Virus record (IMG/VR): IMGVR_UViG_3300018414_000001 | Length of the DNA: 64,000 nucleotides | Direction: 5' to 3' (one strand) | Source: an uncultured virus (IMG/VR IMGVR_UViG_3300018414_000001) | Lineage: Duplodnaviria > Heunggongvirae > Uroviricota > Caudoviricetes | Part shown: piece by piece, positions 24,827 to 37,142 of the stretch | Layout: each line of letters starts with the position of its first letter | Position numbering within the stretch: position 1 is the first letter of the stretch | Notes under the pieces: model-generated | The model's input: the letters and a program-made list of their open reading frames with translations, nothing else | Database searches by the model: none | What the model was told of the DNA's origin: nothing | Made by a program: the position numbers and the translations under genes

Positions 24827-25537
24827 TTAGTAGACGTGTTCGGCATGGCTTGGCTCCTTGATCTCCTGTTGAACGCTTCGTGTCGGCACGCGGTTCGGCG
24901 GTTTGAAGGGAGGGACGCCAAAGACAGCCCCGAAGTTCCCGCCTTCGTCGGCGTCCCACTGTTCCTTGGCGAGTTTGGCGGACCAGCCTCTGGGGCGATG
25001 GCCACCATGCTTTTTGATCCACCCGAGGATATCGGCCTCGGTGTACTGTTCATCGTCCGCGCTGTAACTGACGACCTCCAACAGGTCCGTCATCGGCACG
25101 CCACGAACGAACAGGTCAATCGCATACCGCTCCGTCGTGAAATCGTCGGCACCCTGTAATACGCTGGTGAGATATTTCTTCTCCAACGCCAAGGTGTAAA
25201 TCTGGACCGCGAGTTCCGCCTCCCGTAAATTCATGCGGAACAATTCGGCGATGTCGCTGTTATCCTCGATAGTGGGTTCGCGCCGTTCAAGTTCTCTGAC
25301 GGTGACTCGCATCCTCTGCGGCTGTGTGTCGGGCACGGGGAGATATCTGACGGCGACACGAATAAGCGCCCTCGCTTGCAGCAAGCGGAGTTGGTCGGCA
25401 GCCTCTTTGTCATCCCATGTGAAATAGTCATGCAGAGGGGAGTTTGGGTTTCTCGCGTCCTCAAGAACGGCCTCCGGGCGCAATTCCCCGTGGGTGCGCC
25501 GGATCAGTTCAAGATGCTCGCGTTGAATTGGGGTCAT
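24827..25537 (-). CDS. Conserved phage protein, candidate partner of the RAMP-like gene
   Basis: LELIRRTHGELRPEAVLEDARNPNSPLHDYFTWDDKEAA..RLLQARALIR motif. Start MTPIQ at 25537. Confidence 0.7.
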   Translation of the reverse strand: MTPIQREHLELIRRTHGELRPEAVLEDARNPNSPLHDYFTWDDKEAADQLRLLQARALIRVAVRYLPVPDTQPQRMRVTVRELERREPTIEDNSDIAELFRMNLREAELAVQIYTLALEKKYLTSVLQGADDFTTERYAIDLFVRGVPMTDLLEVVSYSADDEQYTEADILGWIKKHGGHRPRGWSAKLAKEQWDADEGGNFGAVFGVPPFKPPNRVPTRSVQQEIKEPSHAEHVY

Positions 25538-26010
25538 TCGCTCGCGCCTCCGCAACGGATACAAAGTCTGTTGCCCGGGCCGTCACTCATGAACAGTTTC
25601 TCGCAGCGTAAGCACTTTCGCTGCGCGCGACGGTCGGCAGAACTGATGGTTGGCCGATTGGTCTGAGCCATATAAGGAGTAGGAGGATTAACCGGAGCGA
25701 CCGCAGCCGGTTTGAATATCTGCGCGGTTCTTTTTCTCATTGGGCATAAGGAAGCCACGGGATCAGAGACTCGCCTAAGAGGCATCGGCCGAGGAGCCAG
25801 TTTCATTCTGCTGCGCGCGCAATAGACCATGGCGATATACGGAAACTCCATTATCTTCATGATTTCTGAGCCGACGACACCGTCGTTCCAAAGCTTGGCG
25901 AACTGCGCCTTCTTTTCTTTTGACCATGGCGGCCCGTAGCGGCGGTTATGGCCAGCACCCATCGGACAACCGAAGCTGCTTAGCATCGGTTCTGCTTTCC
26001 GTTTTGTCAT
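25534..26010 (-). CDS. GcrA-like N-terminal HTH plus C-terminal Zn ribbon
   Basis: WSKEKKAQFAKLWNDG..SEI; RKCLRCEKLFMSDGPGNRLCIRC. Confidence 0.55.
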   Translation of the reverse strand: MTKRKAEPMLSSFGCPMGAGHNRRYGPPWSKEKKAQFAKLWNDGVVGSEIMKIMEFPYIAMVYCARSRMKLAPRPMPLRRVSDPVASLCPMRKRTAQIFKPAAVAPVNPPTPYMAQTNRPTISSADRRAQRKCLRCEKLFMSDGPGNRLCIRCGGASE

Positions 26011-26204
26011 GTCGCCACCATAACCGGATGCTCGTCTTTAGGATCGCGCACCGTAGTCGGGTAACGCCGGTCCAGATATCGGCAGCGCATACATAGCCGG
26101 AGGTTCTGACTGCCGAACCGATGACCACTAAGGTCACATTCGTCTATAGGTGCTGCCGTCGAGGGCACGATTGTAAATTGCAACATACTGCGCCTCACGA
26201 TCAT
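26007..26204 (-). CDS. 65 aa hypothetical protein downstream of the array
   Basis: GAGGAG RBS then ATG at 26204 (MIVRRSMLQF...). ATGA overlap with the next gene. Confidence 0.55.
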   Translation of the reverse strand: MIVRRSMLQFTIVPSTAAPIDECDLSGHRFGSQNLRLCMRCRYLDRRYPTTVRDPKDEHPVMVAT

Positions 26205-26220
26205 TTTGCTCCTCGGGTTT

Positions 26221-26245
26221 GGGGTGTCGTTATTACCGACACCCC
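26221..26245 (-). terminator. 9-bp hairpin closing the array (no U-tract on the minus strand; terminator or processing stem)
   Basis: GGGGTGTCG-GTAATAA-CGACACCCC. Confidence 0.55.
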
Positions 26246-26896
26246 TCCCCGCGTTGCGTTGCCTGTCCAGTCCCGGCCACGCGAAGCTTTGCCTAGCCGT
26301 TCCAAGCCTGCGAAGCCTCTCCCGGCGATTTCGTACCGAGCCGGGCCTCGCCATACCAAGCCACTCCTGCGTAGCCCTGCCGTGCCAGTCGCGGCCACTC
26401 GTGACCGCGCCGGGCCTAGCCTGGCCCATCCAAGCCTGCGCTGCCGATCCGTGCGACGCCATTCCAATCGACGCCGCGCCGAGCCTGCGTCGCCATGCCC
26501 GGCTATTCCGTGCCAAGCCTTGCTTGTCGCGGCCTCGCCATTCCTGCGATGCCCCGCCACGCGTAGCCGTTCGTCGTCTCGCGACGCCTCTCGACGCTTG
26601 CGAAGCGTTGCGTGGCCGTGCCAACCCACACCAATCCGCGTCGTTCCTTGCCTAGCCTGCGGTGCCACGCCGCGCCTGTCGTGACCGTTCCTGTCCTCGC
26701 ACCGCCTTGCCTGCGGAGCCAAGCCAAACGTCGCCTCGCCGCTCGCCGCCTTGCCGTTCCTGCGCTGCCCAACCAATCCGGGCCAATCGCGGCGCAGCCG
26801 TACCGTCCGTGCCATTCCTGCGTTTCCAACCCTATCCGCGCGTCTCCTGGCCCCGCCTCGGCGTGCCGTGCCAGCCCTGACCACACCTGCCATGCC
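26244..26896 (-). ncRNA. Array of 11 guide-like units of (GGN/CGN)NN pentamers separated by CGCA (VIPR-type RNA array)
   Basis: Separators seen on + as cctgcg/cttgcg at 26307, 26366, 26435, 26484, 26543, 26597, 26656, 26710, 26759, 26817, plus cctgcc at 26886. Spacings are 59,69,49,59,54,59,54,49,58,69, i.e. 5n+4 with one 1-nt exception. Confidence 0.85.
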
Positions 26897-26916
26897 AAAC
26901 AAAGGGGAGCGAACCC

Positions 26917-27678
26917 TCAAGCCGCATCGGCCTCTCTAACCAGTTGATCCGCATGTTGCCGTTGTGATCCTGATGAAATCGACCGGGAAGCCAATCCGTT
27001 GTCCAACTGCGTTTCGCCCTCTTGGACGATATCGAATGTGCCGAAGCCGATGCCCGCCGACATTTTGGAATCCGGCCTTCCTTCCCCAATTCCCCCTTGC
27101 GCTCCAACCCGGGCCAAGAGGTTGATGACATCGGCGGGGGAGAATTGATCAGCGTCGAACTTCACCCGAAGGGTCGCGCCCCATCCGCCAGCGGGCCACT
27201 GCGGCCGCACACGAAGGTCAACCACTCCTGTCGCGTTTCGCGCGGCCATCACGGATCGTTCGGGCCTGCCGCCGGTAATCCGAACCAACGGCGTCCCATC
27301 GTCCGCGTCCCACCCGTCCGCGATAATGAACAGACTGAGTTTCGCCAACGTCATCTTGAACCCCACCAATCGGCAGGCCGAGATCATGCCGTTGCGAAAA
27401 GCCCCCGCCGCGATGCCATCCCATCCTTCGCGGGACAGATGACGCGCACCGTTAAACACGGCGTCGAAATCTTTAGGCTCGCGCTTCCGCCCCTTGTTGC
27501 TCTGGGACCCGGCCTGTTGGGTAGTCGCGATCTGCTCCAACGCCTTCGTTGAGAACTTGTTGATCATCAGGGGAGCCGTTCCGACGATATCGACAACCAA
27601 TTCCCTTAAATTCGGTGGACTGATCAAGACCTGTGTCTGCATCCCCACCGAGGCTTTAGTCGCTGCTCTTGCCATCAT
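26917..27678 (-). CDS. RAMP/Cas7-like RNA-binding protein (Vipr-like effector)
   Basis: VDIVGTAPLMI first strand, GIAAGAFRNGMISAC helix and C-terminal Gly-rich loop GGIGEGRP..GIGFGTF. AAGGAG RBS. The array begins about 20 nt after the stop. Confidence 0.8.
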   Translation of the reverse strand: MMARAATKASVGMQTQVLISPPNLRELVVDIVGTAPLMINKFSTKALEQIATTQQAGSQSNKGRKREPKDFDAVFNGARHLSREGWDGIAAGAFRNGMISACRLVGFKMTLAKLSLFIIADGWDADDGTPLVRITGGRPERSVMAARNATGVVDLRVRPQWPAGGWGATLRVKFDADQFSPADVINLLARVGAQGGIGEGRPDSKMSAGIGFGTFDIVQEGETQLDNGLASRSISSGSQRQHADQLVREADAA

Positions 27679-27697
27679 TTAACTCCTTGTTGGTCGT

Positions 27698-27732
27698 GTG
27701 GCCTATGTGGCCACCGGAGTTAATTCTGTCAA
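27698..27732 (-). promoter_or_regulatory. Promoter TTGACA-N17-CACATA overlapped by palindrome GTGGCC-N5-GGCCAC
   Basis: -35 at 27732-27727; palindrome at 27698-27714. Confidence 0.65.
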
Positions 27733-27941
27733 CCTTTAATTTCCCTTTGCTGCTTTTTTTCCGCCATCAATGCGAGAACAACTCTGGTCTGTTTGGGAAC
27801 CTTCTTCATTCCCCGATAGCGTCTCGCCTGCCTGGGGCTGATTTCAAGCAGCGCGGCAACTCTCCTGTCCATTTCCAGGACGGGGAGAGTGATCGAAATT
27901 CCATTGGCCCTCAAAAGAGTGGCATACGCCTGGTCTATCAA
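27729..27941 (-). CDS. Small HTH regulator
   Basis: RRVAALLEISPRQARRYRG..KVPKQTRVVLAL. Confidence 0.6.
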   Translation of the reverse strand: MIDQAYATLLRANGISITLPVLEMDRRVAALLEISPRQARRYRGMKKVPKQTRVVLALMAEKKQQREIKG

Positions 27942-28984
27942 TGGAACTCCGTCCCGCCCTTTCGGGTCAGATATTCTGGAGATATGTATTTCACGATGAC
28001 ACGCCCGATCCGGGGGTCTGTCCGCTCTTTTTGTGATCTCACGACGACTCCTTCTCGCATATGCGCCATATTACCGGATATGGTCGCACCTGAAGCCAGC
28101 CGCTCGACGATGCCGCCAACAAGGGGGCCGCTGTAGAGAATCGGAACCGACGGCGCGATCTCTCCGACAACCCGATTGAATTCCTCCCGGTTAAGCCACC
28201 GGCCGCGCCCCGGAGTGCCCAGGTAAATATCGAAGGCCGAGAAAGTCGGTTCTGCCTGCCCATACGACAGGTCTTGAACCGTGCCGCCGTATATCTCCCC
28301 GAAAACAGTAGCAGACCGGCCATTGAAGGCCCCTCTTAACCGGCGTCTCATTCCAAATGCTGCTTTGAGGTAAAGGTTCTCAGGATTGGGTGCCTTCAGG
28401 ACGTGTCCTGTCTCGCCCAGGCTCTTGCTGTAAACAAGGGTGTCGCCGTCCGGAAGCCGAGGGTCGTTCAAGCCGGGAAGGTAGCCTATGGCGCACATGG
28501 TCCCGTGCAGCTTTTCGGTGATCTCGACTGGCTCTCCGTTCCTGACGACATGAGGCCAGCGCCGGGCGCTTCGTATATCGTAAGCGACTGTCGAACCAGG
28601 AAGAAAGATGCACTCCCCCCTCCATGGGGTGGGGATGGGTTGTTCGTATTTGACCACCCCAAGGGAAACTGAAACATCCTCTCCCACCTTCCCGCGGGGG
28701 ATAGGGCCGATCAGAATACCCTCACTGAACGCCCCCCGGAGCCTGTAGGGCCGCACCCGATTCTTCTTCTCCCCGAATAGCTTGGCCTGCCCTTTGAGGG
28801 ACGCCGCAAGATCACCGGGTAGCACGGAGTCAGGCGGCAGGTAGATGGCGTTATCGGAATTCCCGTAACGTCCTTTGGGCACAATCACATCGATATCGAA
28901 AACCTTGGCGAGTTCAATCTCGTCGGCCCCTGGGATGGGACTAATCGACTCAATCCGAACCACGGGGCAAGAAAAATCGCTCAC
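27938..28984 (-). CDS. ATP-dependent RNA ligase, DRB0094/Rnl2-like family
   Basis: N-terminal PIPGADEIELA, motif I TEKLHGT, VFGEIYG, FDI, REGVVV, K.ISPEYL. Confidence 0.9.
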   Translation of the reverse strand: MSDFSCPVVRIESISPIPGADEIELAKVFDIDVIVPKGRYGNSDNAIYLPPDSVLPGDLAASLKGQAKLFGEKKNRVRPYRLRGAFSEGILIGPIPRGKVGEDVSVSLGVVKYEQPIPTPWRGECIFLPGSTVAYDIRSARRWPHVVRNGEPVEITEKLHGTMCAIGYLPGLNDPRLPDGDTLVYSKSLGETGHVLKAPNPENLYLKAAFGMRRRLRGAFNGRSATVFGEIYGGTVQDLSYGQAEPTFSAFDIYLGTPGRGRWLNREEFNRVVGEIAPSVPILYSGPLVGGIVERLASGATISGNMAHMREGVVVRSQKERTDPRIGRVIVKYISPEYLTRKGGTEFH

Positions 28985-29817
28985 CGTTCATTTTCCCCCT
29001 TGACTGTGCTGGCCGTTATGTCCATGTTGCGGGTGTCCAGCAGACTCCCCGCTGGACTGACAGACGGAGAACATGATGCCATGGGCAACTTTGGCTGCGA
29101 TGCAATCCTGGCAAGCGGCGCCCTCTCGGGCGCCGCAGCCATGTCAGGGGTATATTTCCTCCGCAACTCGCTAACCGTTTCATCGTAGATTTCGACCAAA
29201 CAATCAGAGCGCAGCCTCGCGGCATTGATCACCGGAGAGGCAAGCCGCATAAGAGTTTCCGCTAAAACGTACGGCGTGAACCTCAAATTCGATATTATCT
29301 TGTTCCGCAAGCGATCAGCGATGCGCTGAAAGCCAGCATCGCTGACAATTATCTCCCCCGCCGCTCGGCGCAATGACCCAAATAGAACCGGCGATAATGG
29401 TCCGCTACCGTCGCCATGAACTGCATATTGATGACGACAGGAGCCGCAGCGATAGGCTCGTCCCTCGATTACTCGGACATCGTCCGAACCACACCACCCG
29501 CAGAGCCGAACCGTAAGCGGTAGACGCCATTGGGCCAGAAGCCTAGCGCCGTCCGCTGTGTTGCATTTATGGCACGCCGCCGCGCAGGTCTCCCAACAGA
29601 CCCTGCCCCCCGCACTCGCTGGGATGACATGCTCAATCGTGCAGAGTGTATCGCCTCGCCGCCAACGGTTCATCACCACGCCGCAGTAGCAACAGCGCCA
29701 GTTTTGAGCCTCGGCAAGCCGGTCCCGCAGAAGCATGGAGGGGGCAAGGGCGGAATGGTTCTGATCAACCTCCATGAACGCATAAGCCGCCTTATGGTCC
29801 CATCGGTCGATAATCAT
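28981..29817 (-). CDS. HNH endonuclease domain protein
   Basis: EAQNWRCCYCG..TIEHVIPASAGG..AACHKCN. Confidence 0.8.
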   Translation of the reverse strand: MIIDRWDHKAAYAFMEVDQNHSALAPSMLLRDRLAEAQNWRCCYCGVVMNRWRRGDTLCTIEHVIPASAGGRVCWETCAAACHKCNTADGARLLAQWRLPLTVRLCGWCGSDDVRVIEGRAYRCGSCRHQYAVHGDGSGPLSPVLFGSLRRAAGEIIVSDAGFQRIADRLRNKIISNLRFTPYVLAETLMRLASPVINAARLRSDCLVEIYDETVSELRRKYTPDMAAAPERAPLARIASQPKLPMASCSPSVSPAGSLLDTRNMDITASTVKGENER

Positions 29818-30139
29818 CGGAACGCCTCTTGTTCGTCTTCGGGGAGAGCGTTAATCGCCGCGCTTTGCAATGTCATGAACATGGACAAGCCAAGCCCTTC
29901 GACGAAGGCTGGGTTTTGGAGATTGTCCTTCCCGATCTCCTGAAGCAGCCAATGACCGTGCCAGCCATAAATCCTGACCAGAGCCGCCAACAGTTCCTTC
30001 ATGGACACAATCATAAAGGCGGTTGGCGTGATCCATTGCATCGAACCGTAGTCAAGGTTCTCTAGCCTGCCGACATGCTCATAGGCAAAGCCGTCATCAA
30101 GGGCATCGTCATCGGGGATCGGAACGGCAGCCATGTGGT

Positions 30140-30295
30140 TCATCGTGACGACAGTTCATGAAGCATGATTTTCCGATACCTCTCCACGGTGCCTTTGCTG
30201 ACACCAAGATCGGCCGCGATCTTCCGAAGGCTCTCTCCGGCCTGCAACCGCTCGATCATCATCTCAATGATGGCCTCCGGCAGAAAGTTTCCCAT
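30140..30295 (-). CDS. 51 aa HTH protein
   Basis: Manual translation MGNFLPEAIIEMIERLQAGESLRKIAADLGVSKGTVERYRKIMLHELSSR. Confidence 0.7.
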   Translation of the reverse strand: MGNFLPEAIIEMMIERLQAGESLRKIAADLGVSKGTVERYRKIMLHELSSR

Positions 30296-31674
30296 CACCA
30301 CTCCAGGGCGTTCAGGACACCAGCGGGAAGCGTTGAACCATAAGAGTCGGTGTCATCGTTGTCCCACTTCGGAGCATCCAAAGAACCCACCATGTAAGGG
30401 TTGTCCTGGCTCTTGCGGTAGGATCGCACAAAGGCACGCAACACATCCGGCGACCCCTTGAGGTCGTCCAGAGAGGTTTGTCCTTCCAGGATCGCCAGCA
30501 GCACGATCTGGCAAACATCGGCCCGCATAAAGTCTGGGTAAGCGCGAGAGACCAGTCCCGAGACCTCTATCGTCAGGGCCGCGCCATTTGCATCCGCGAA
30601 CCTGGGAAGCGTCGGCAGATATGGATAGGCGGATAGGATTTTCGGTTGCGCCGGAACCGATATCCTCGGCTTGGAAAAGAGCGGGCGCCAACTCGCCGGA
30701 ATTGTGACGAAAGGCACATTGTCTCTTGCGTACCATGCGATGGAAGTTGCCGACCGGCCCAAGGCCGCGGCTGCCTGATCTGGCGTCGCACCCGCCTCAG
30801 CCAAGGTCGTAAGATCATGTCTCTCCTGCGGCGTCCACCAGCCGCGAGTGGACCAGAGATACCCATAGGGGTAACGAGGCGCAGCAAGCAAATCGGCCAC
30901 ACTACGATCTATGATGGGAGCGGCTTCCGCTGTTTCTTTACGACCCTGCCAGGACTGGCGCATCTTCACGGAAAACGCGCCGTTTTTACAAGCTTTGCAG
31001 ACGGTCGAAGTCAGGCCCCATTCTCTAGCCGCGCCGCTGCGGAATTGGAAATCCGCGGAAGGTTTCTCCTGGCCGCAGTCGCGGCAAATCTTAGTAGGCA
31101 ACAGCGCGTCCAGTTTGGCGCGCGGCGCGTCAGGAGCCGCCTTCCCCCCTTGCCAATAACCGGTGAAATGGCTCTTTCCTTCCAGATTTCCGCAAAGCAT
31201 TTCCTGCGCTTTGCGGAACAGGATGTATGCCGTCTTGAAATTGCACCCGATGTCTTCCGACAACCGGCTGATCGTCACGTCGCCCTTATTGCGCTGGACG
31301 GCTGACAGGAGAAGCAAGATCGTTCTGATCGGAACCTTCAAACCGGCGAACACCGTCCCGCTCGTCAGACTGAAACAAGGATGGCGACCCTTGCATTTCC
31401 ATCGACTGGCGCCGTTTGCCTCGCGGCAACTGTAAACTTTCGTGCTGCTGCACGTTGGGCATGTCGGTTTCCCGTCCGTTCCGGGCCATCGCAAATGACG
31501 CCACATTGCTTCGGCCTCTTCGTCTGTGAGGCCCTTTATGGTGCCCTCGTCAGGCAAGAGCGGATAAGACGGAGCCGCTTTGGCGCTAACCGCCTGAGGC
31601 GGCAAAAGTTTCTCCCACTCCGAGGTTTTCCAGGAGTTCAGAAACTCATCAAGGTATGTGGTTGTTCCGTCCAT
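30295..31674 (-). CDS. IS1595-transposase-derived protein (Zn ribbon + HTH, DDE core absent) fused to additional domains
   Basis: LTDEEAEA..LRWP..GKPTCPTC..FSLTSGTVF..LSEDIGCNFKTAY, then almost directly GYWQ. No E-x-D-E/G, TDE or N-x-x-E catalytic motifs seen. Confidence 0.75.
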   Translation of the reverse strand: MDGTTTYLDEFLNSWKTSEWEKLLPPQAVSAKAAPSYPLLPDEGTIKGLTDEEAEAMWRHLRWPGTDGKPTCPTCSSTKVYSCREANGASRWKCKGRHPCFSLTSGTVFAGLKVPIRTILLLLSAVQRNKGDVTISRLSEDIGCNFKTAYILFRKAQEMLCGNLEGKSHFTGYWQGGKAAPDAPRAKLDALLPTKICRDCGQEKPSADFQFRSGAAREWGLTSTVCKACKNGAFSVKMRQSWQGRKETAEAAPIIDRSVADLLAAPRYPYGYLWSTRGWWTPQERHDLTTLAEAGATPDQAAAALGRSATSIAWYARDNVPFVTIPASWRPLFSKPRISVPAQPKILSAYPYLPTLPRFADANGAALTIEVSGLVSRAYPDFMRADVCQIVLLAILEGQTSLDDLKGSPDVLRAFVRSYRKSQDNPYMVGSLDAPKWDNDDTDSYGSTLPAGVLNALEW

Positions 31675-31709
31675 ACCGGGAATGTGGCCAATTAGGCCAC
31701 CACAGTCAA
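31675..31709 (-). promoter_or_regulatory. Leaderless-type promoter TTGACT-N17-CACATT with GTGGCC-N5-GGCCAC palindrome
   Basis: Palindrome at 31684-31700; ATG 6 nt after the -10. Confidence 0.65.
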
Positions 31710-31982
31710 GAGGCTTTGATCACTCGTCTCGAATAATATGTGACGACCCATCCGGTTCGATCCACGCGACCACTTTCGGCCATTCCGGGGTGGATGGAGG
31801 CACCACAGAGGCCCAGAAGCCCGATTCGTCCAGTTTACGCAGCATGGTCCCCATGTCCTGGGCAGCCGTCATCATTAGATCCATAGACACGGCATTGGGG
31901 GCGAATCGATAGACATTGGCGGCTTCCTGCAACCGGGTCGCCGCTGTCTCCAGGGCGCGTGCTATGGTGACCTCTCCGAGGC

Positions 31983-32432
31983 TCACAACGGCGTAACCTG
32001 AATTGAAACTCCTCGCGGGCCATCGGCGCGAGCGACTTCAAGATGCGTCATGTTGCGGTCATTCCTGACCATGCCCATCTTTTGCAATAAATCGCTAATA
32101 GGCTTCACAACATTGTCGATGTCCATCGCCGGAGCGCGCACGACAATCGTCAGTTTATACGCTCCCTCAATCGGCCTCCACGCCTGTCTGCCAGCACTGA
32201 TTTCTCCCTTGGCGGTTTTAATCCATGCACGATAAGCCGATGTCTTGCGACGGCCTACGCCCTCTACATTGGCCCACGCGCCGTTAACGGATGGCGGTAA
32301 TGACAGATTTGCAAAAAACGGTCCTGGCCGCTCGATCTCTTGCGCGACAGATTCTATTGGCACACGCTGCCGGGCCAATCCATGGCGCCGCGCCTCATAG
32401 TCAGCCAGCCATTCTTCGCTAAACCCACTCAC
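31983..32432 (-). CDS. rusA: RusA-like Holliday junction resolvase
   Basis: LPPSVN..W, DIDNVVKPISDLL..G...NDR. Confidence 0.85.
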   Translation of the reverse strand: MSGFSEEWLADYEARRHGLARQRVPIESVAQEIERPGPFFANLSLPPSVNGAWANVEGVGRRKTSAYRAWIKTAKGEISAGRQAWRPIEGAYKLTIVVRAPAMDIDNVVKPISDLLQKMGMVRNDRNMTHLEVARADGPRGVSIQVTPL

Positions 32433-33213
32433 CCCGGCACCCCCACGCGGCCCGTGCGTTGTGGTGCGGGCCGCGTGACTGGCGGCATCGTACCAACACT
32501 ACCAGAACCGCCGGGTTCGCAATCGGGCGTCACTTCCCCGGCATCGCGCCCATCTTGAGAACAGGCCACGATCTCACCGACAATCCGCTTCGCCAGCGAA
32601 TTGACGAAAAATACACGTTCACTTTTCGATAATGCCGTGAACCACGAGGGATGGCGGCCCATGGTGTGACGGATTTGCCCCTCGACGCGAGGTGTCCAGA
32701 AGTCGTGCATGGGGCTGTGTTTGCGGAGAGTCATGGCTCCTCCGGCACATCGAACCGCGTCCAGTGCGTATGTCCGCCGGTATAATCCCGATCCAGTGGC
32801 GTCCCGGCATAAGGCGGTTCCACCACCGGGAAATGCCACCATAGCACCGGGCCATCAGCCTCGGACCAATCCGCCAGGGCGTGGAGGCGTTTTTGGTCAA
32901 TCATTGCCGCCTCTGATTCAACGGATTCCCACAATCCGGGCACTCAGACCAGCCAAACGTTGCGATACCGCCGAGGCGATTATCAACCCATCCACTATTA
33001 TTACAGGTCTCGCAGACCAGAGCACACCAGCAACCACAGCCCCCAATGGATTCATCGTGGTGAGGCGGAACGAACGCAAGAGCGCAAACATCGGATTCCG
33101 GGATCACCTTCCTGCAATCACAACACCACCACAGAGACTTGGATTCAGGTACGCCATCTTCGCGCAACGCGGCCATTCCCCGCGCGATCCCGGCGAAGTC
33201 ATCGGCGATGCGG

Positions 33214-33555
33214 TCAATCGGCGGCACGACGCCACCCTTCCGGCACATACTCCCGCTGATTCCGGACTTCATATATCCCTGGTTCCAGCAAGAGTGAGTC
33301 GTGCGTGTCAAAGTCACGAAGATGCACAACCTCGGATGGTTCCGCGACTTCCAGCCACGCGATGAATGTGTTGGTATCGTGGATGAACCGGTCAGCGGCA
33401 CGCGACTCGATAACGTGGTGATGACCAGTTTCCGAATGTGCAAGGATGTGGTGGCCATTCTGAGGGGCCGATTTCTTCGCGCCATCTGGCACGATAGCGA
33501 TGCGGCGGATCATCAGATCGCCCTGGAAGGACGGGCGGCTGGTTACGATTTTCAT
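33214..33555 (-). CDS. Conserved phage protein, usual neighbour of DUF6745
   Basis: QGDL, ILAHSETGHHH, H...LEPGIYEVRNQREY..WRRAAD. Confidence 0.75.
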   Translation of the reverse strand: MKIVTSRPSFQGDLMIRRIAIVPDGAKKSAPQNGHHILAHSETGHHHVIESRAADRFIHDTNTFIAWLEVAEPSEVVHLRDFDTHDSLLLEPGIYEVRNQREYVPEGWRRAAD

Positions 33556-34787
33556 GTCCTGTGTTCCTTGAGTTTGAGTAAGTCCGGCGGAATATCGTAC
33601 GTCCAGCAGTTTCCCTCCAACGCCGTCTTAACCGTTGGAGGAACTGGTATGGCAAACGAGCGGCCCGTACCACATTGAACGCGAAGAAACCGCTCCTTCG
33701 GCGCGTCCGGCAAGCTGACCTCAATCAATTCCCCGATCTGAGGATCGTCATCGCGATCGATTGTCGTGCCCTTCAGATCATCCAGGATACGCGTCCAGCC
33801 CACGAGCTCGCAGGCCGCTCGTCGCTGTTCGACGTTCGTTTGCCCAAGGGCGATCTGGGCGGTCAGGCCGGTTTTGTTCATAATCCATTCAGAAGGCACC
33901 GCGACCCCGTGCCAGTGCCACAACGACCATCCGTCCTGATAAAGCATGGACGGACCTGTTTCATTATGCAATCGCCCTTGGTCATCACGCAAAATGGATT
34001 TAGGTCGATCCGAGATCGCCAGCACATCTTCGTGCCACCATGTCCAACCGCAACTTTGAATCAGGTCTTCGTCTATTTTGAAACGTTCGAGAACGGGATT
34101 GTCCCAATCACACACATCACGGAAGAACGAGATATACGCTCCCCATGAAGCATACAAAGCACTAGTGTAACTATTATTCAAGATGCTTCCGACCTGGCTC
34201 TCGACCTGGCTCTCGACCTGGCTCCTGACCTGGCTCTCGACCTGGCTCTCGACCTGGCCCTCGACTTGGCTCCCGACCTGGCTCCTGACCTGGCTCTCGA
34301 CCTGGCTCCCGACCTGGCTCCAGACCTGGCTCTCGATCTGGCTCCCGACTTGGCTCCTGACCTGGCTCCAGACCTGGCTCTCGACCTGGCTCCCGACTTG
34401 GCTCCTGACCTGGCTCCAGACCTGGCTCTCGACATGGCTCTCGACCTGGCTCCCGACCTGGCTCCAGACCTGGCTCCCGACCTGGCTCCAGACCTGGCTC
34501 TCGACCTGGCTCCCGACCTGGCTCCTGACCTGGCTCTTAAGCCCTGACATTTCACGGAGCATACTCCAGGCAGTAACGCCCCCCAAACACGCCGCCAGCG
34601 GACTGCCCATCCGCAACACGATCTTCGGCTTTTTCAGACCGGCCAGTTCGTAAGCCTGCAACGCCGCCGAGGTCGCGAGATCAAAATCTGCCGGTTCAGT
34701 GGATAAACCGATCTTGATCCATTTTTCCGACCATTCGGCGAAACGTGCAGATTGTTCAGGCGTTAATTTTGTGATCTTGTCAGCCAT
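33552..34787 (-). CDS. DUF6745-like protein with internal SQVx repeat
   Basis: W..IGLSTEPAD, CGWTWW, DDQGRLHNETGP..Y.DGW..WHGV.VP, NVEQRR. Start MADKITK at 34787. Confidence 0.8.
   Translation of the reverse strand: MADKITKLTPEQSARFAEWSEKWIKIGLSTEPADFDLATSAALQAYELAGLKKPKIVLRMGSPLAACLGGVTAWSMLREMSGLKSQVRSQVGSQVESQVWSQVGSQVWSQVGSQVESHVESQVWSQVRSQVGSQVESQVWSQVRSQVGSQIESQVWSQVGSQVESQVRSQVGSQVEGQVESQVESQVRSQVESQVESQVGSILNNSYTSALYASWGAYISFFRDVCDWDNPVLERFKIDEDLIQSCGWTWWHEDVLAISDRPKSILRDDQGRLHNETGPSMLYQDGWSLWHWHGVAVPSEWIMNKTGLTAQIALGQTNVEQRRAACELVGWTRILDDLKGTTIDRDDDPQIGELIEVSLPDAPKERFLRVQCGTGRSFAIPVPPTVKTALEGNCWTYDIPPDLLKLKEHRT
34188..34535 (-). repeat. 29 x 12-nt tandem repeat encoding S-Q-V-[R/G/E/W]
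   Basis: AGC CAG GTC + variable codon; seen on + as gacctggct-NNN. Confidence 0.95.
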
Positions 34788-34986
34788 GTTTCCGCTCCTT
34801 CTTCCGCCGCCCTGCCGTCGTAGCCATGATCTGTGCCGTTTCGGCACGCAACGCGGCCATTTCGGCACGCAACGCGAACCGAATCGCTTCACGGAAATTC
34901 AGATCGAGAAATTCGGCGATCTCACCGATAAGATCACGATCTCCCTCAGTCAGGTTCATCGCGAAGCGTGCGGATGGCTTTTTCAT
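34780..34986 (-). CDS. RHH-like small regulator
   Basis: ARFAMNLTEGDRDLIGEIAEFLDLNFREAIRFALR. TTGACA-N18-TAATAT ends 7 nt before the ATG. Confidence 0.6.
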   Translation of the reverse strand: MKKPSARFAMNLTEGDRDLIGEIAEFLDLNFREAIRFALRAEMAALRAETAQIMATTAGRRKKERKHG

Positions 34987-35655: not shown

Positions 35656-36471
35656 TCAGACATTGGGATGATCCTCCCGCTGGTCGCGGACACGCTCGTA
35701 GGCCACACGGACATGGCTCTGGCAATACGGGCGGCCCGGTTCGGATGGCACATCGCAGAAGTGGAATTCCTTCGTCCCCGGTTCGTCGATCGGCCAGCAG
35801 CACTCGACCACGCGCCCATATCGCTTCGGTACCGATTCCGGGCGCGATCTAGCGGGTGCCATGATAACCGGCGGAGCACGCCAGGGAAGCAGAGGCTTCG
35901 CGGTGATGACGGTTTCCGCGATGCGGCGGTCATGAGCAGCGGTTATCATGGAGGATGGAGGTGGCGCCATGATCGAAGCCAGAGGTGCCAGGGTTGCCTT
36001 TGGCGCGCGCGGCGGCTTTGGTGGTTTCGGGGAACTGCTCCGCCTGATTGGCGATGGCCGGCTTTCCATGCCCGGGTAAAAATGCGGTTCGTTCATCATG
36101 CGGTGCGTCTGCCCGATGATGCTGTTTCTTGTTTTGCCGAGGCGCTTGCCAATCTCGCTTATGGAAAGACCCTGCATGTAGAGTGGGTAAATCGCGGCTC
36201 TGACGGCATGCCGTTCTGATTGCGGGGCTATAGACGGTGAGACGTAGGGCTTGTGGAGTATATAATCTCTCCGGGACGTCCCTTTCGATGACGGCGCTGA
36301 TCTGGTCGAAACCGTGACGCAGCCCTGCTCCATCAATTTTTTGAAAGCATATGTAATCGTATCTGCGTGTAAGCCGAGTTGTTTCTCAAACCATGAAATC
36401 GGAACGCCGGATACGACATGATCGACTGCCAAATCATGAAGCAGCGTATAAAGAGCTGATGGTGCTGACAT
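35656..36471 (-). CDS. gcrA: GcrA-family regulator with extra N-terminal winged HTH
   Basis: GLSISEIGKRLGKTRNSIIGQTHR and CCWPIDEPGTKEFHFC..GRPYCQSH..AY. Confidence 0.8.
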   Translation of the reverse strand: MSAPSALYTLLHDLAVDHVVSGVPISWFEKQLGLHADTITYAFKKLMEQGCVTVSTRSAPSSKGTSRRDYILHKPYVSPSIAPQSERHAVRAAIYPLYMQGLSISEIGKRLGKTRNSIIGQTHRMMNEPHFYPGMESRPSPIRRSSSPKPPKPPRAPKATLAPLASIMAPPPSSMITAAHDRRIAETVITAKPLLPWRAPPVIMAPARSRPESVPKRYGRVVECCWPIDEPGTKEFHFCDVPSEPGRPYCQSHVRVAYERVRDQREDHPNV

Positions 36472-36509
36472 TCGTTCCCCTCCTTGCCCAATCCCAACCG
36501 CCCCGGCGG

Positions 36510-36971
36510 TCAAGGATATGCGTCCTGATTATCGCTTACGCATCGCCGCAACGGCGATGGCCTCGGCGTAAACCCGTTGCGATGCGCGATGCCGCTGATG
36601 ACGTTTTTCTTCACACCCAGTTCCCGCGCGACCTGAGACGCGGTTAATTCCCGATCCCAAAGTGTGCGGGCCTGCGCGATAAATTCGTCTCCGTGATGCC
36701 GTAGAGATTTCGGCCCGCAGGTTCGGCAATATCTGATTGACCTATGCCGCTCTGGCACGAACAACACATCGCACGCCTCGCAGTTCATCATGCCGTACCG
36801 GACACGCTTATCAAGCGGCGCGCTGACGCGAGGAATGGACCGGCGACGTAGAATTTGTTGAACGCGCTGCCATGATATTCCAAACATCCGTGCGATATGA
36901 CCCACTCCTTGTCCCGCATCGGACAAGATGTAAATTCGTTCGTTGCGGTCTGTTTTTTCGGGTTCTGCCAT
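36510..36971 (-). CDS. HTH - Zn finger - GcrA-like HTH protein
   Basis: IARMFGISWQRVQQIL; CEAC..CRTC; LWDRELTASQVARELGVKKNVISGIAHR. Confidence 0.65.
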   Translation of the reverse strand: MAEPEKTDRNERIYILSDAGQGVGHIARMFGISWQRVQQILRRRSIPRVSAPLDKRVRYGMMNCEACDVLFVPERHRSIRYCRTCGPKSLRHHGDEFIAQARTLWDRELTASQVARELGVKKNVISGIAHRNGFTPRPSPLRRCVSDNQDAYP

Positions 36972-37142
36972 TATCCTGGCTCCTTTTTCTGCCTCTCCAT
37001 TTCCGCCAGCGCCGCACAGGCGAGGCGCATCCAATAGTCGATGTATGCCTGCCCGAGGAATTCATTTTCCCACAGCCGTTCGATCTCGTCACGTCCCAGC
37101 CCGGTGCAGGCCCCGTGGAGCGCGATGGCGATGGCGCGGGGG

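Follow-up and report, generated by a model that had tools for sequence, protein, structure and literature searches.

Which function does a gene derived from an IS1595 transposase serve in a phage that also carries a VIPR guide array matching IS1595 coding DNA? The window, i.e. the whole analysed stretch of 64 kb, is the first part of a complete virus record of 87,783 nt with direct terminal repeats. From its GcrA, RusA, antirepressor and terminase genes we infer an alphaproteobacterial phage. The gene in question lies on the minus strand and belongs to a long run of leftward genes, with the VIPR locus 2.6 kb downstream of it. Its ORF and coordinates were right in the original prediction, which had been made from the sequence alone. 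The following genes frame the question:

30295..31674, minus strand: DDE-less IS1595-derived gene (459 aa) with IS1595 N-module and tail, Zn finger and conserved HTH-helical core
30140..30295, minus strand: 51-aa HTH ORF, TGATG-coupled to the 459-aa gene
26917..27678, minus strand: vipr (RAMP-like) gene, phrog_4652 with E 7e-11; its relatives adjoin GGY/NN arrays
26259..26896, minus strand: VIPR array of the GGY/NN type with 11 units, of which U2, U3, U5 and U9 match IS1595 coding DNA

Segments resembling the 51-aa HTH ORF occur as N-terminal fusions in the proteins P0089 and P0154. The phage possesses a true GcrA gene (35656-36513) with the GcrA sigma-binding domain; GcrA-like helices were also observed at 25534-26010 and 36510-37034 of the window, in the same gene run. 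Furthermore, a DUF6745 gene at 33552-34892 contains a long 12-nt tandem repeat with SQV-type tetrapeptides, and an intergenic pair of 145-nt duplicates with 70% identity is located at 2270-2414 and 2809-2953. Reads over 25500-32500 showed no variants and no joints. In one RNA-labelled run contigs covered 26513-26774 and 28153-28299 and none covered the 459-aa gene, which indicates neither expression nor silence.

Within the 459-aa protein the following parts were distinguished, all encoded on the minus strand:

31390..31527: IS1595 zinc ribbon, aa 50-95; Pfam PF12760 (Zn_ribbon_IS1595), E 1.8e-6, over the cut-off
31195..31338: IS1595-type HTH, aa 113-160; alignment with intact transposases and helices in the model
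31150..31173: SHFTGYWQ, what remains of the C-terminal IS1595 tail, without the expected preceding DDE; hhalign
30979..31098: CxxC..CxxC finger of the HNH/EndoVII-accessory type, aa 193-232; PHROG 1035, E 5e-5
30706..30855: second HTH with GcrA/Myb-like fold, aa 274-323; VIA Z 6.0
30391..30594: helical bundle, aa 361-428, in which RADxxQ is near-invariant; an SLD-acidic tail comes after it; without a named family

The claimed IS1595 N-terminus was confirmed by the ribbon match and by the alignment of the HTH with nine intact transposases, which extends through residue ~160. FKTAYILF in this HTH is the equivalent of YKTAFVL in the transposases. The loss of the catalytic core, likewise claimed, was borne out by a comparison of HMMs, in which PF12760 matched and DDE_Tnp_IS1595 (PF12762) gave no match at E ≤ 1 in the 459-aa protein. 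For the control transposase P0011 both ribbon and DDE were detected, the latter with E 1e-37. In 6/6 full-length homologues no DDE was found with Pfam. Homology scoring of 8000 candidates was passed by 16 proteins. Apart from the query they comprise six homologues over the full length and nine IS1595 transposases that are intact; these nine cover just 26-27% of the 459-aa protein, namely the first quarter. The N-module shares 30-43% identity with intact IS1595 enzymes.

GYWQ had been assigned to the C-terminus of the transposase, and this assignment stands. A profile built from the tails of 15 fused proteins reached a hhalign probability of 68% (E 4.8e-5) against the IS C-terminus, compared with 1.7% against the internal YFGGY motif and ≤0.3% against three DDE segments, with short profiles and the 459-aa protein as first row. 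Literal GYWQ is present in 3/15 of these tails, the others reading GYM, GYQ, GYS, GYF or GFW, and it was seen again in the proteins P0020 and P0021. An initial suspicion that GYWQ corresponds to the internal YFGGY motif had arisen because the W was found in just this protein among seven compared; it was dropped after hhalign, the tail HMM and the tail of the prophage locus L004. In L004 a separate protein of 175 aa leads from ribbon over HTH to a clear IS tail (tail HMM E 7e-9). Its gene overlaps the beginning of the next one, which is homologous to the C-terminal half of the 459-aa protein, and no Vipr was found in the record. The locus (L004:9908-11282) belongs to a Zavarzinella formosa prophage, where a TGACAC-N4-GTGTCA-like palindrome lies over the -35 of the 175-aa gene. 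Judged by its sequence, the phage gene is catalytically dead: ribbon, HTH and tail of IS1595 are retained and the DDE is lost.

Behind the tail the predicted CxxC..CxxC finger is present, though two of the six homologues (P0005 and P0007) lack it, so it is dispensable in the family. The 'helical domain' of the original prediction was right as to the bundle and missed the second HTH. The model of this HTH together with the bundle had a pLDDT of 86; the full-length model was weaker (pLDDT 62, pTM 0.34) and returned nothing in Foldseek at E ≤ 0.001. The sole return of a PDB sequence search was archaeal Rpo4 at E 0.09, and Atlas look-alikes of the protein belong to HTH clusters or to clusters without name. 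The second HTH shares the fold of the GcrA DNA-binding domain (5yiu; rmsd 1.4, 46 aligned), but this hit is tied with Myb, Reb1 and Tc3 rows, no match to PF07750 was obtained and the GcrA sigma-binding domain is missing. In the region of the second HTH phrog_323 matches 66/107 family members.

The bundle has the motif order V..LV..P..D..Q..L....F/Y..SLD in common with sigma-70 region 2 of ECF sigmas. Sigma factors accounted for 9 of 22 Foldseek rows, all with E ≥ 3.3, and reached VIA Z values of 4.5-4.7, below those of MLLE domains (6.5). With hhalign 2.9% was obtained against RpoE. The score of 19 against an 11-sigma profile fell within 60 shuffled controls (maximum 22.75). Pfam sigma region 2 was detected in 2/107 family members at E about 0.1, and region 4 gave no match in the 459-aa protein, which ends 35 residues past the bundle. 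The likeness of the bundle to sigma region 2, in sequence and in the model, appears faint and stays below every threshold. For the core domain of L004 with the beta-prime clamp region of the host, the predicted complex scored 0.49 vs 0.56 for the control and is evidence neither way.

Frame and motifs are conserved in the six full-length homologues (44-60% identity), and zinc ligands and reading frame are intact through a diverse clade. Conservation in the close clade amounts to 53-82% in the non-IS half, compared with 33-54% in the ribbon-HTH part. With a profile built from residues 256-459, 330 clusters were retrieved at E ≤ 0.001. The IS ribbon was present in 19 of 149 new core proteins listed and scanned, and none of the 149 had a DDE among the top five families displayed per protein. 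In the remaining core proteins the core stands by itself or is accompanied by additional HTHs or HNH domains, with many different front and back ends. In a quick tree of 105 cores, whose ribbon-less rows may in part be fragments, the 24 ribbon-bearing rows require 9 changes, at least 7 of them forced. In the tree of the N-module (FastTree, 115 columns, long branches) 14 fused proteins including the 459-aa protein form a clade (support 99), and the 175-aa protein of L004 nests within intact transposases (support 97). Because the two are separate on this tree, the DDE-less module seems to have reached the core at least twice independently. With this search an unnamed family came to light, made up of modular phage regulators, in which an IS1595 front end was acquired more than once.

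For the closest clade (ten closest homologues) the alignment search yielded no locus among viral, metagenome or genome contigs, and the core had no match among 50,697 annotated phages. Core loci with classifiable context were phage records or short contigs. One group of loci (L005, L019-L035, L038-L046) encodes a conserved Zn-finger/HTH protein of ~260 aa whose end is formed by the RADICQ bundle alone. Its gene is situated between terminase-like and portal-like genes in L005, and the named hosts of this protein group are Acidobacteria. In another phage an intact IS1595 transposase of a different subgroup (L003:19970-20908) is separated by 8 kb from a fused member of the family.

The guides of the VIPR array were matched by the one-base-skip rule and scored in dinucleotides. 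Decoded, they read TNGAEEFFS (U3), YKTAFVLTH (U5), xQNGKRQVVVM (U2) and ...SRTWAGYWQK (U9). The best scores over the DNA of 70 IS1595-like loci were 9/9 for U5 (three loci with identical proteins), 8/9 for U3 (five loci), 9/11 for U2 (six loci) and 9/13 for U9 (five loci); order-shuffled control guides, for which 18 of these loci were used, scored 5-7. U6 spells an EVDETYVG-like motif and had no clear gain over the control on the 70-locus set. The guides thus match intact IS1595-like genes. The prediction that the 459-aa gene stems from the GYWQ-tailed IS1595 subgroup matched by the guides is supported at the level of sequence.

The gene was expected to escape its own guides. Its low match counts, originally given as 4/11 and 4/12, were confirmed as low and corrected to 3/9 for the site homologous to U5 (31213-31239) and 4/13 for that of U9. 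Because the genome-wide best scores are 5-7, with no unit above 7 dinucleotides in the phage's own genome, these values are background, and the predicted escape holds. Both sites are far below the match level of 80% set in the available text of the VIPR paper (bioRxiv 10.64898/2026.04.26.720920). In the recognition helix of the 459-aa protein the U5 motif has drifted to 4/9, compared with 8-9/9 in 84/129 transposases.

Upstream of the gene and of vipr the same palindrome was found:

31684..31700: palindrome GTGGCC-N5-GGCCAC, 9 nt before the ATG of the 459-aa gene and 3 nt behind TTGACT (31704-31709, minus strand)
27698..27714: second perfect palindrome, 19 nt before the vipr ATG and 12 nt behind TTGACA (27727-27732, minus strand)

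The genome of 87,783 nt contains exactly these two copies, none with one mismatch and none with any of 11 other spacer lengths. The expected count was 0.017 (mean of 60 Markov-simulated genomes), which overstates the rarity because the motif was picked after viewing these promoters. Singly, each palindrome is unexceptional (2/30 shuffles were equally good), and a consensus promoter scan calls neither site because the -10 is weak. Since the two palindromes of the genome stand before the gene and before vipr, the gene is likely to regulate VIPR. The connection with the VIPR system assumed in the original prediction thus gains support. We propose that a domesticated DNA-binding module of a transposase serves here as a regulator that autoregulates and controls vipr via the palindrome, and we give this reading about an even chance. 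GTGGCC-N5-GGCCAC would act as operator and would be bound by the 459-aa protein, most likely via the IS-derived module, comparable to the self-repression by InsA of IS1. Binding would overlap the spacer or the -10 and lead to repression, so that the protein would adjust both its own amount and the amount of VIPR transcript. The C-terminal core may supply contacts to DNA or RNA polymerase. Palindromes of their own were also seen by eye at the vipr promoters of L067, L068 and L070, with the common motif TTAGCAA-N-TTGCTAA, which suggests operator control of vipr in these loci as well. The fused genes of L003 and L036 have no clear upstream palindrome.

The candidate binder is ambiguous, because three HTHs come into question, two in the 459-aa protein and one in the next ORF. 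Possible, if somewhat unlikely, is a modular phage regulator in which the IS1595 module is one swappable part and the palindrome belongs to another, co-regulating factor. This factor could be the Cro-like XRE protein of the phage (41593-41757), the neighbouring 51-aa HTH protein or a CI of the host or a prophage. The varied ends of the 330 core clusters, the ribbon in few of the core proteins listed and the forced changes in the tree agree with this explanation. Because a near-identical site (TTGACA, then 11/12) occurs in the CI/Cro switch of another phage (L205/L206), the binder could be an XRE repressor encoded by the phage, its host or a prophage. No copy with two or fewer mismatches was found near the phage's own XRE gene, however, and no S24-type CI is encoded in the complete genome. 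The combined pattern of operator and -35 had 39 matches in viral contigs, roughly estimated the number expected by chance; the CI/Cro site accounts for 2/39, and none of the 39 adjoins a Vipr or IS module. The intergenic region of this switch (L205:3210-4258) contains several GTGGCC/GGCCAC palindromes.

Co-occurrence with RAMP-array loci, suggested as a check in the original prediction, was not seen in the few other testable records, which also speaks for a separate factor. Vipr was absent from 5/5 other phage records with the core (single-protein search). The 459-aa gene was found in 0/9 Vipr records, one of these complete. Besides its own genome, phrog_4652 was detected on a separate contig of bin G007 and not in the bins G002, G003 or G006. 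The arrays of related VIPR loci, with tracts in 7/9, remained below the IS1595 matches of this array. On the other hand, a separate factor leaves it as a coincidence that the sole IS1595-matching array examined lies 2.6 kb from a site-sharing gene of IS1595 origin.

Autoregulation by the IS1595-derived protein itself has a parallel in the donor genes. GYWQ-type IS1595-like genes are common in phages (62 loci in one scan). In 22/47 intact phage-borne genes a palindrome that beats at least 29/30 shuffles lies within 60 nt before the ATG, mostly behind a TTG(A/C)(C/T) hexamer and with a sequence of its own in each gene. As it is present in 22/47 genes, the layout of TTGAC and palindrome is regarded as typical of the donors. 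A classic terminal repeat was found for 1/47 phage-borne genes (200 nt upstream to 2.5 kb downstream) vs 5/7 plasmid copies. Because GYWQ genes are frequent in phages and mostly without nearby classic ends, the targets of the guides become a separate question. The GYWQ-type genes in viral contigs (L112-L168) may represent a phage-adapted or domesticated class. The phage gene has Zn ribbon, HTH and tail in common with GYWQ-tailed transposases, e.g. of Rhodovastum and Skermanella plasmid elements, and shares TTGAC and palindrome before the ATG with many phage-borne copies. In contrast to these transposases it lacks the DDE, and neither clear IS-type terminal repeats nor a target duplication were found.

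The closest known counterpart is InsA, the DDE-less front of the IS1 transposase, which represses the promoter before its own gene (PMC12428005, in the part available). Like the phage protein it is a DDE-less Zn ribbon-HTH protein from an IS1/IS1595-type transposase, and besides self-repression it competes for the ends of the element. InsA is produced by the element itself through lack of a frameshift. The phage gene differs in its internal deletion of the DDE, the retained tail, ~280 unrelated residues and a palindrome in common with a non-IS gene. As phage IS1595 genes share the layout and InsA represses itself, autoregulation extended to vipr is the simplest reading.

The role proposed originally would likewise be InsA-like: as decoy or dominant negative the protein would bind IS1595 ends or subunits of the transposase and, as a second anti-IS arm, block transposition into the phage. 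The accessible part of the same source (PMC12428005) describes that InsA and the transposase compete for both ends of IS1. The subgroup shared with the guide targets and its frequency in phages fit such a role. True inner terminal repeats often read GCCAC (L105, L106, L107, L108 and L135, by eye), five of the six half-site letters, and most of the intact enzymes listed share 48-56% identity with the stand-alone mini-transposase of L004. Yet the full palindrome occurs at 0/54 intact element starts, ends or promoters, and a half-site in 2/54; a match of five letters is weak. Moreover, the module is only distantly related to intact enzymes, its recognition helix has drifted, and the non-transposase half, which is the best conserved, has no role in a decoy. 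We therefore do not uphold this prediction and consider the decoy unlikely. A regulatory role, as far as it can be read from the sequence, fits the anatomy better, and the protein would be the control arm of an anti-IS system rather than a second weapon.

The original prediction noted no terminal inverted repeats. This needs correction as far as an imperfect inverted pair exists:

28996..29034, plus strand: inverted partner site with TTGACT, the same 3-nt spacer and then a palindrome copy (29009-29025; 9/12 positions by eye), facing back into the cassette

With 31675-31713 the site forms a 39-nt pair with 28/39 matches, 17/19 in the first 19 nt (next best 15/19). It encloses 2.7 kb with the 459-aa gene, the small HTH ORF, an ORF of 109 aa and the larger part of an HNH ORF. 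Passenger genes are known from IS1595 elements. The region 28996-31713 could be a decayed, internally deleted IS1595 derivative with passenger genes and a module without current function. However, no likeness of the pair to true IS1595 ends (best 16/24, located elsewhere) and no target duplication of 5-10 nt were found at symmetric offsets of -3 to 39. Because of these two results the site at 28996-29034 is read as convergent promoter-like or as a very old end. The core was present in 0/70 IS loci. The conservation, with zinc ligands and frame intact across a diverse clade, largely refutes a functionless relic, which we regard as most improbable.

Since true ends often hold GCCAC, cross-binding of the regulator to IS ends and a sensor circuit are conceivable. 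The tamed IS1595 module might repress VIPR until IS ends with inner GCCAC titrate the repressor or the transposase poisons it, so that VIPR would be switched on only in presence of an element; the drift of the motifs would hide the gene from its own guides. This transposon-sensing circuit is doubtful and quite speculative. If the gene does regulate vipr, a fragment of a parasite would have been turned by the phage into the switch of a guide system against this parasite.

The locus agrees with the VIPR systems (bioRxiv 10.64898/2026.04.26.720920) in vipr, the GGY/NN array, one-base-skip targets in wobble register and the absence of a self-target above 80%. It differs in the 459-aa gene 2.6 kb upstream of vipr with its own promoter-like site. 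The targets described there are satellites and prophages, and the available main text mentions neither operators nor autoregulation nor insertion sequences. In the accessible part of 10.64898/2026.10.15.759431 IS1595 is not mentioned. The literature covered, which did not extend to the supplements with VIPR targets and vap genes, contained no account of such a domesticated IS1595 phage gene or of a link between IS1595 and VIPR. The present locus provides a concrete candidate operator and regulator for VIPR, whose regulation is absent from the accessible VIPR text. A further VIPR locus with ~25 guide tracts on both strands was observed in a complete 67.7-kb phage (L066:10664-12061).
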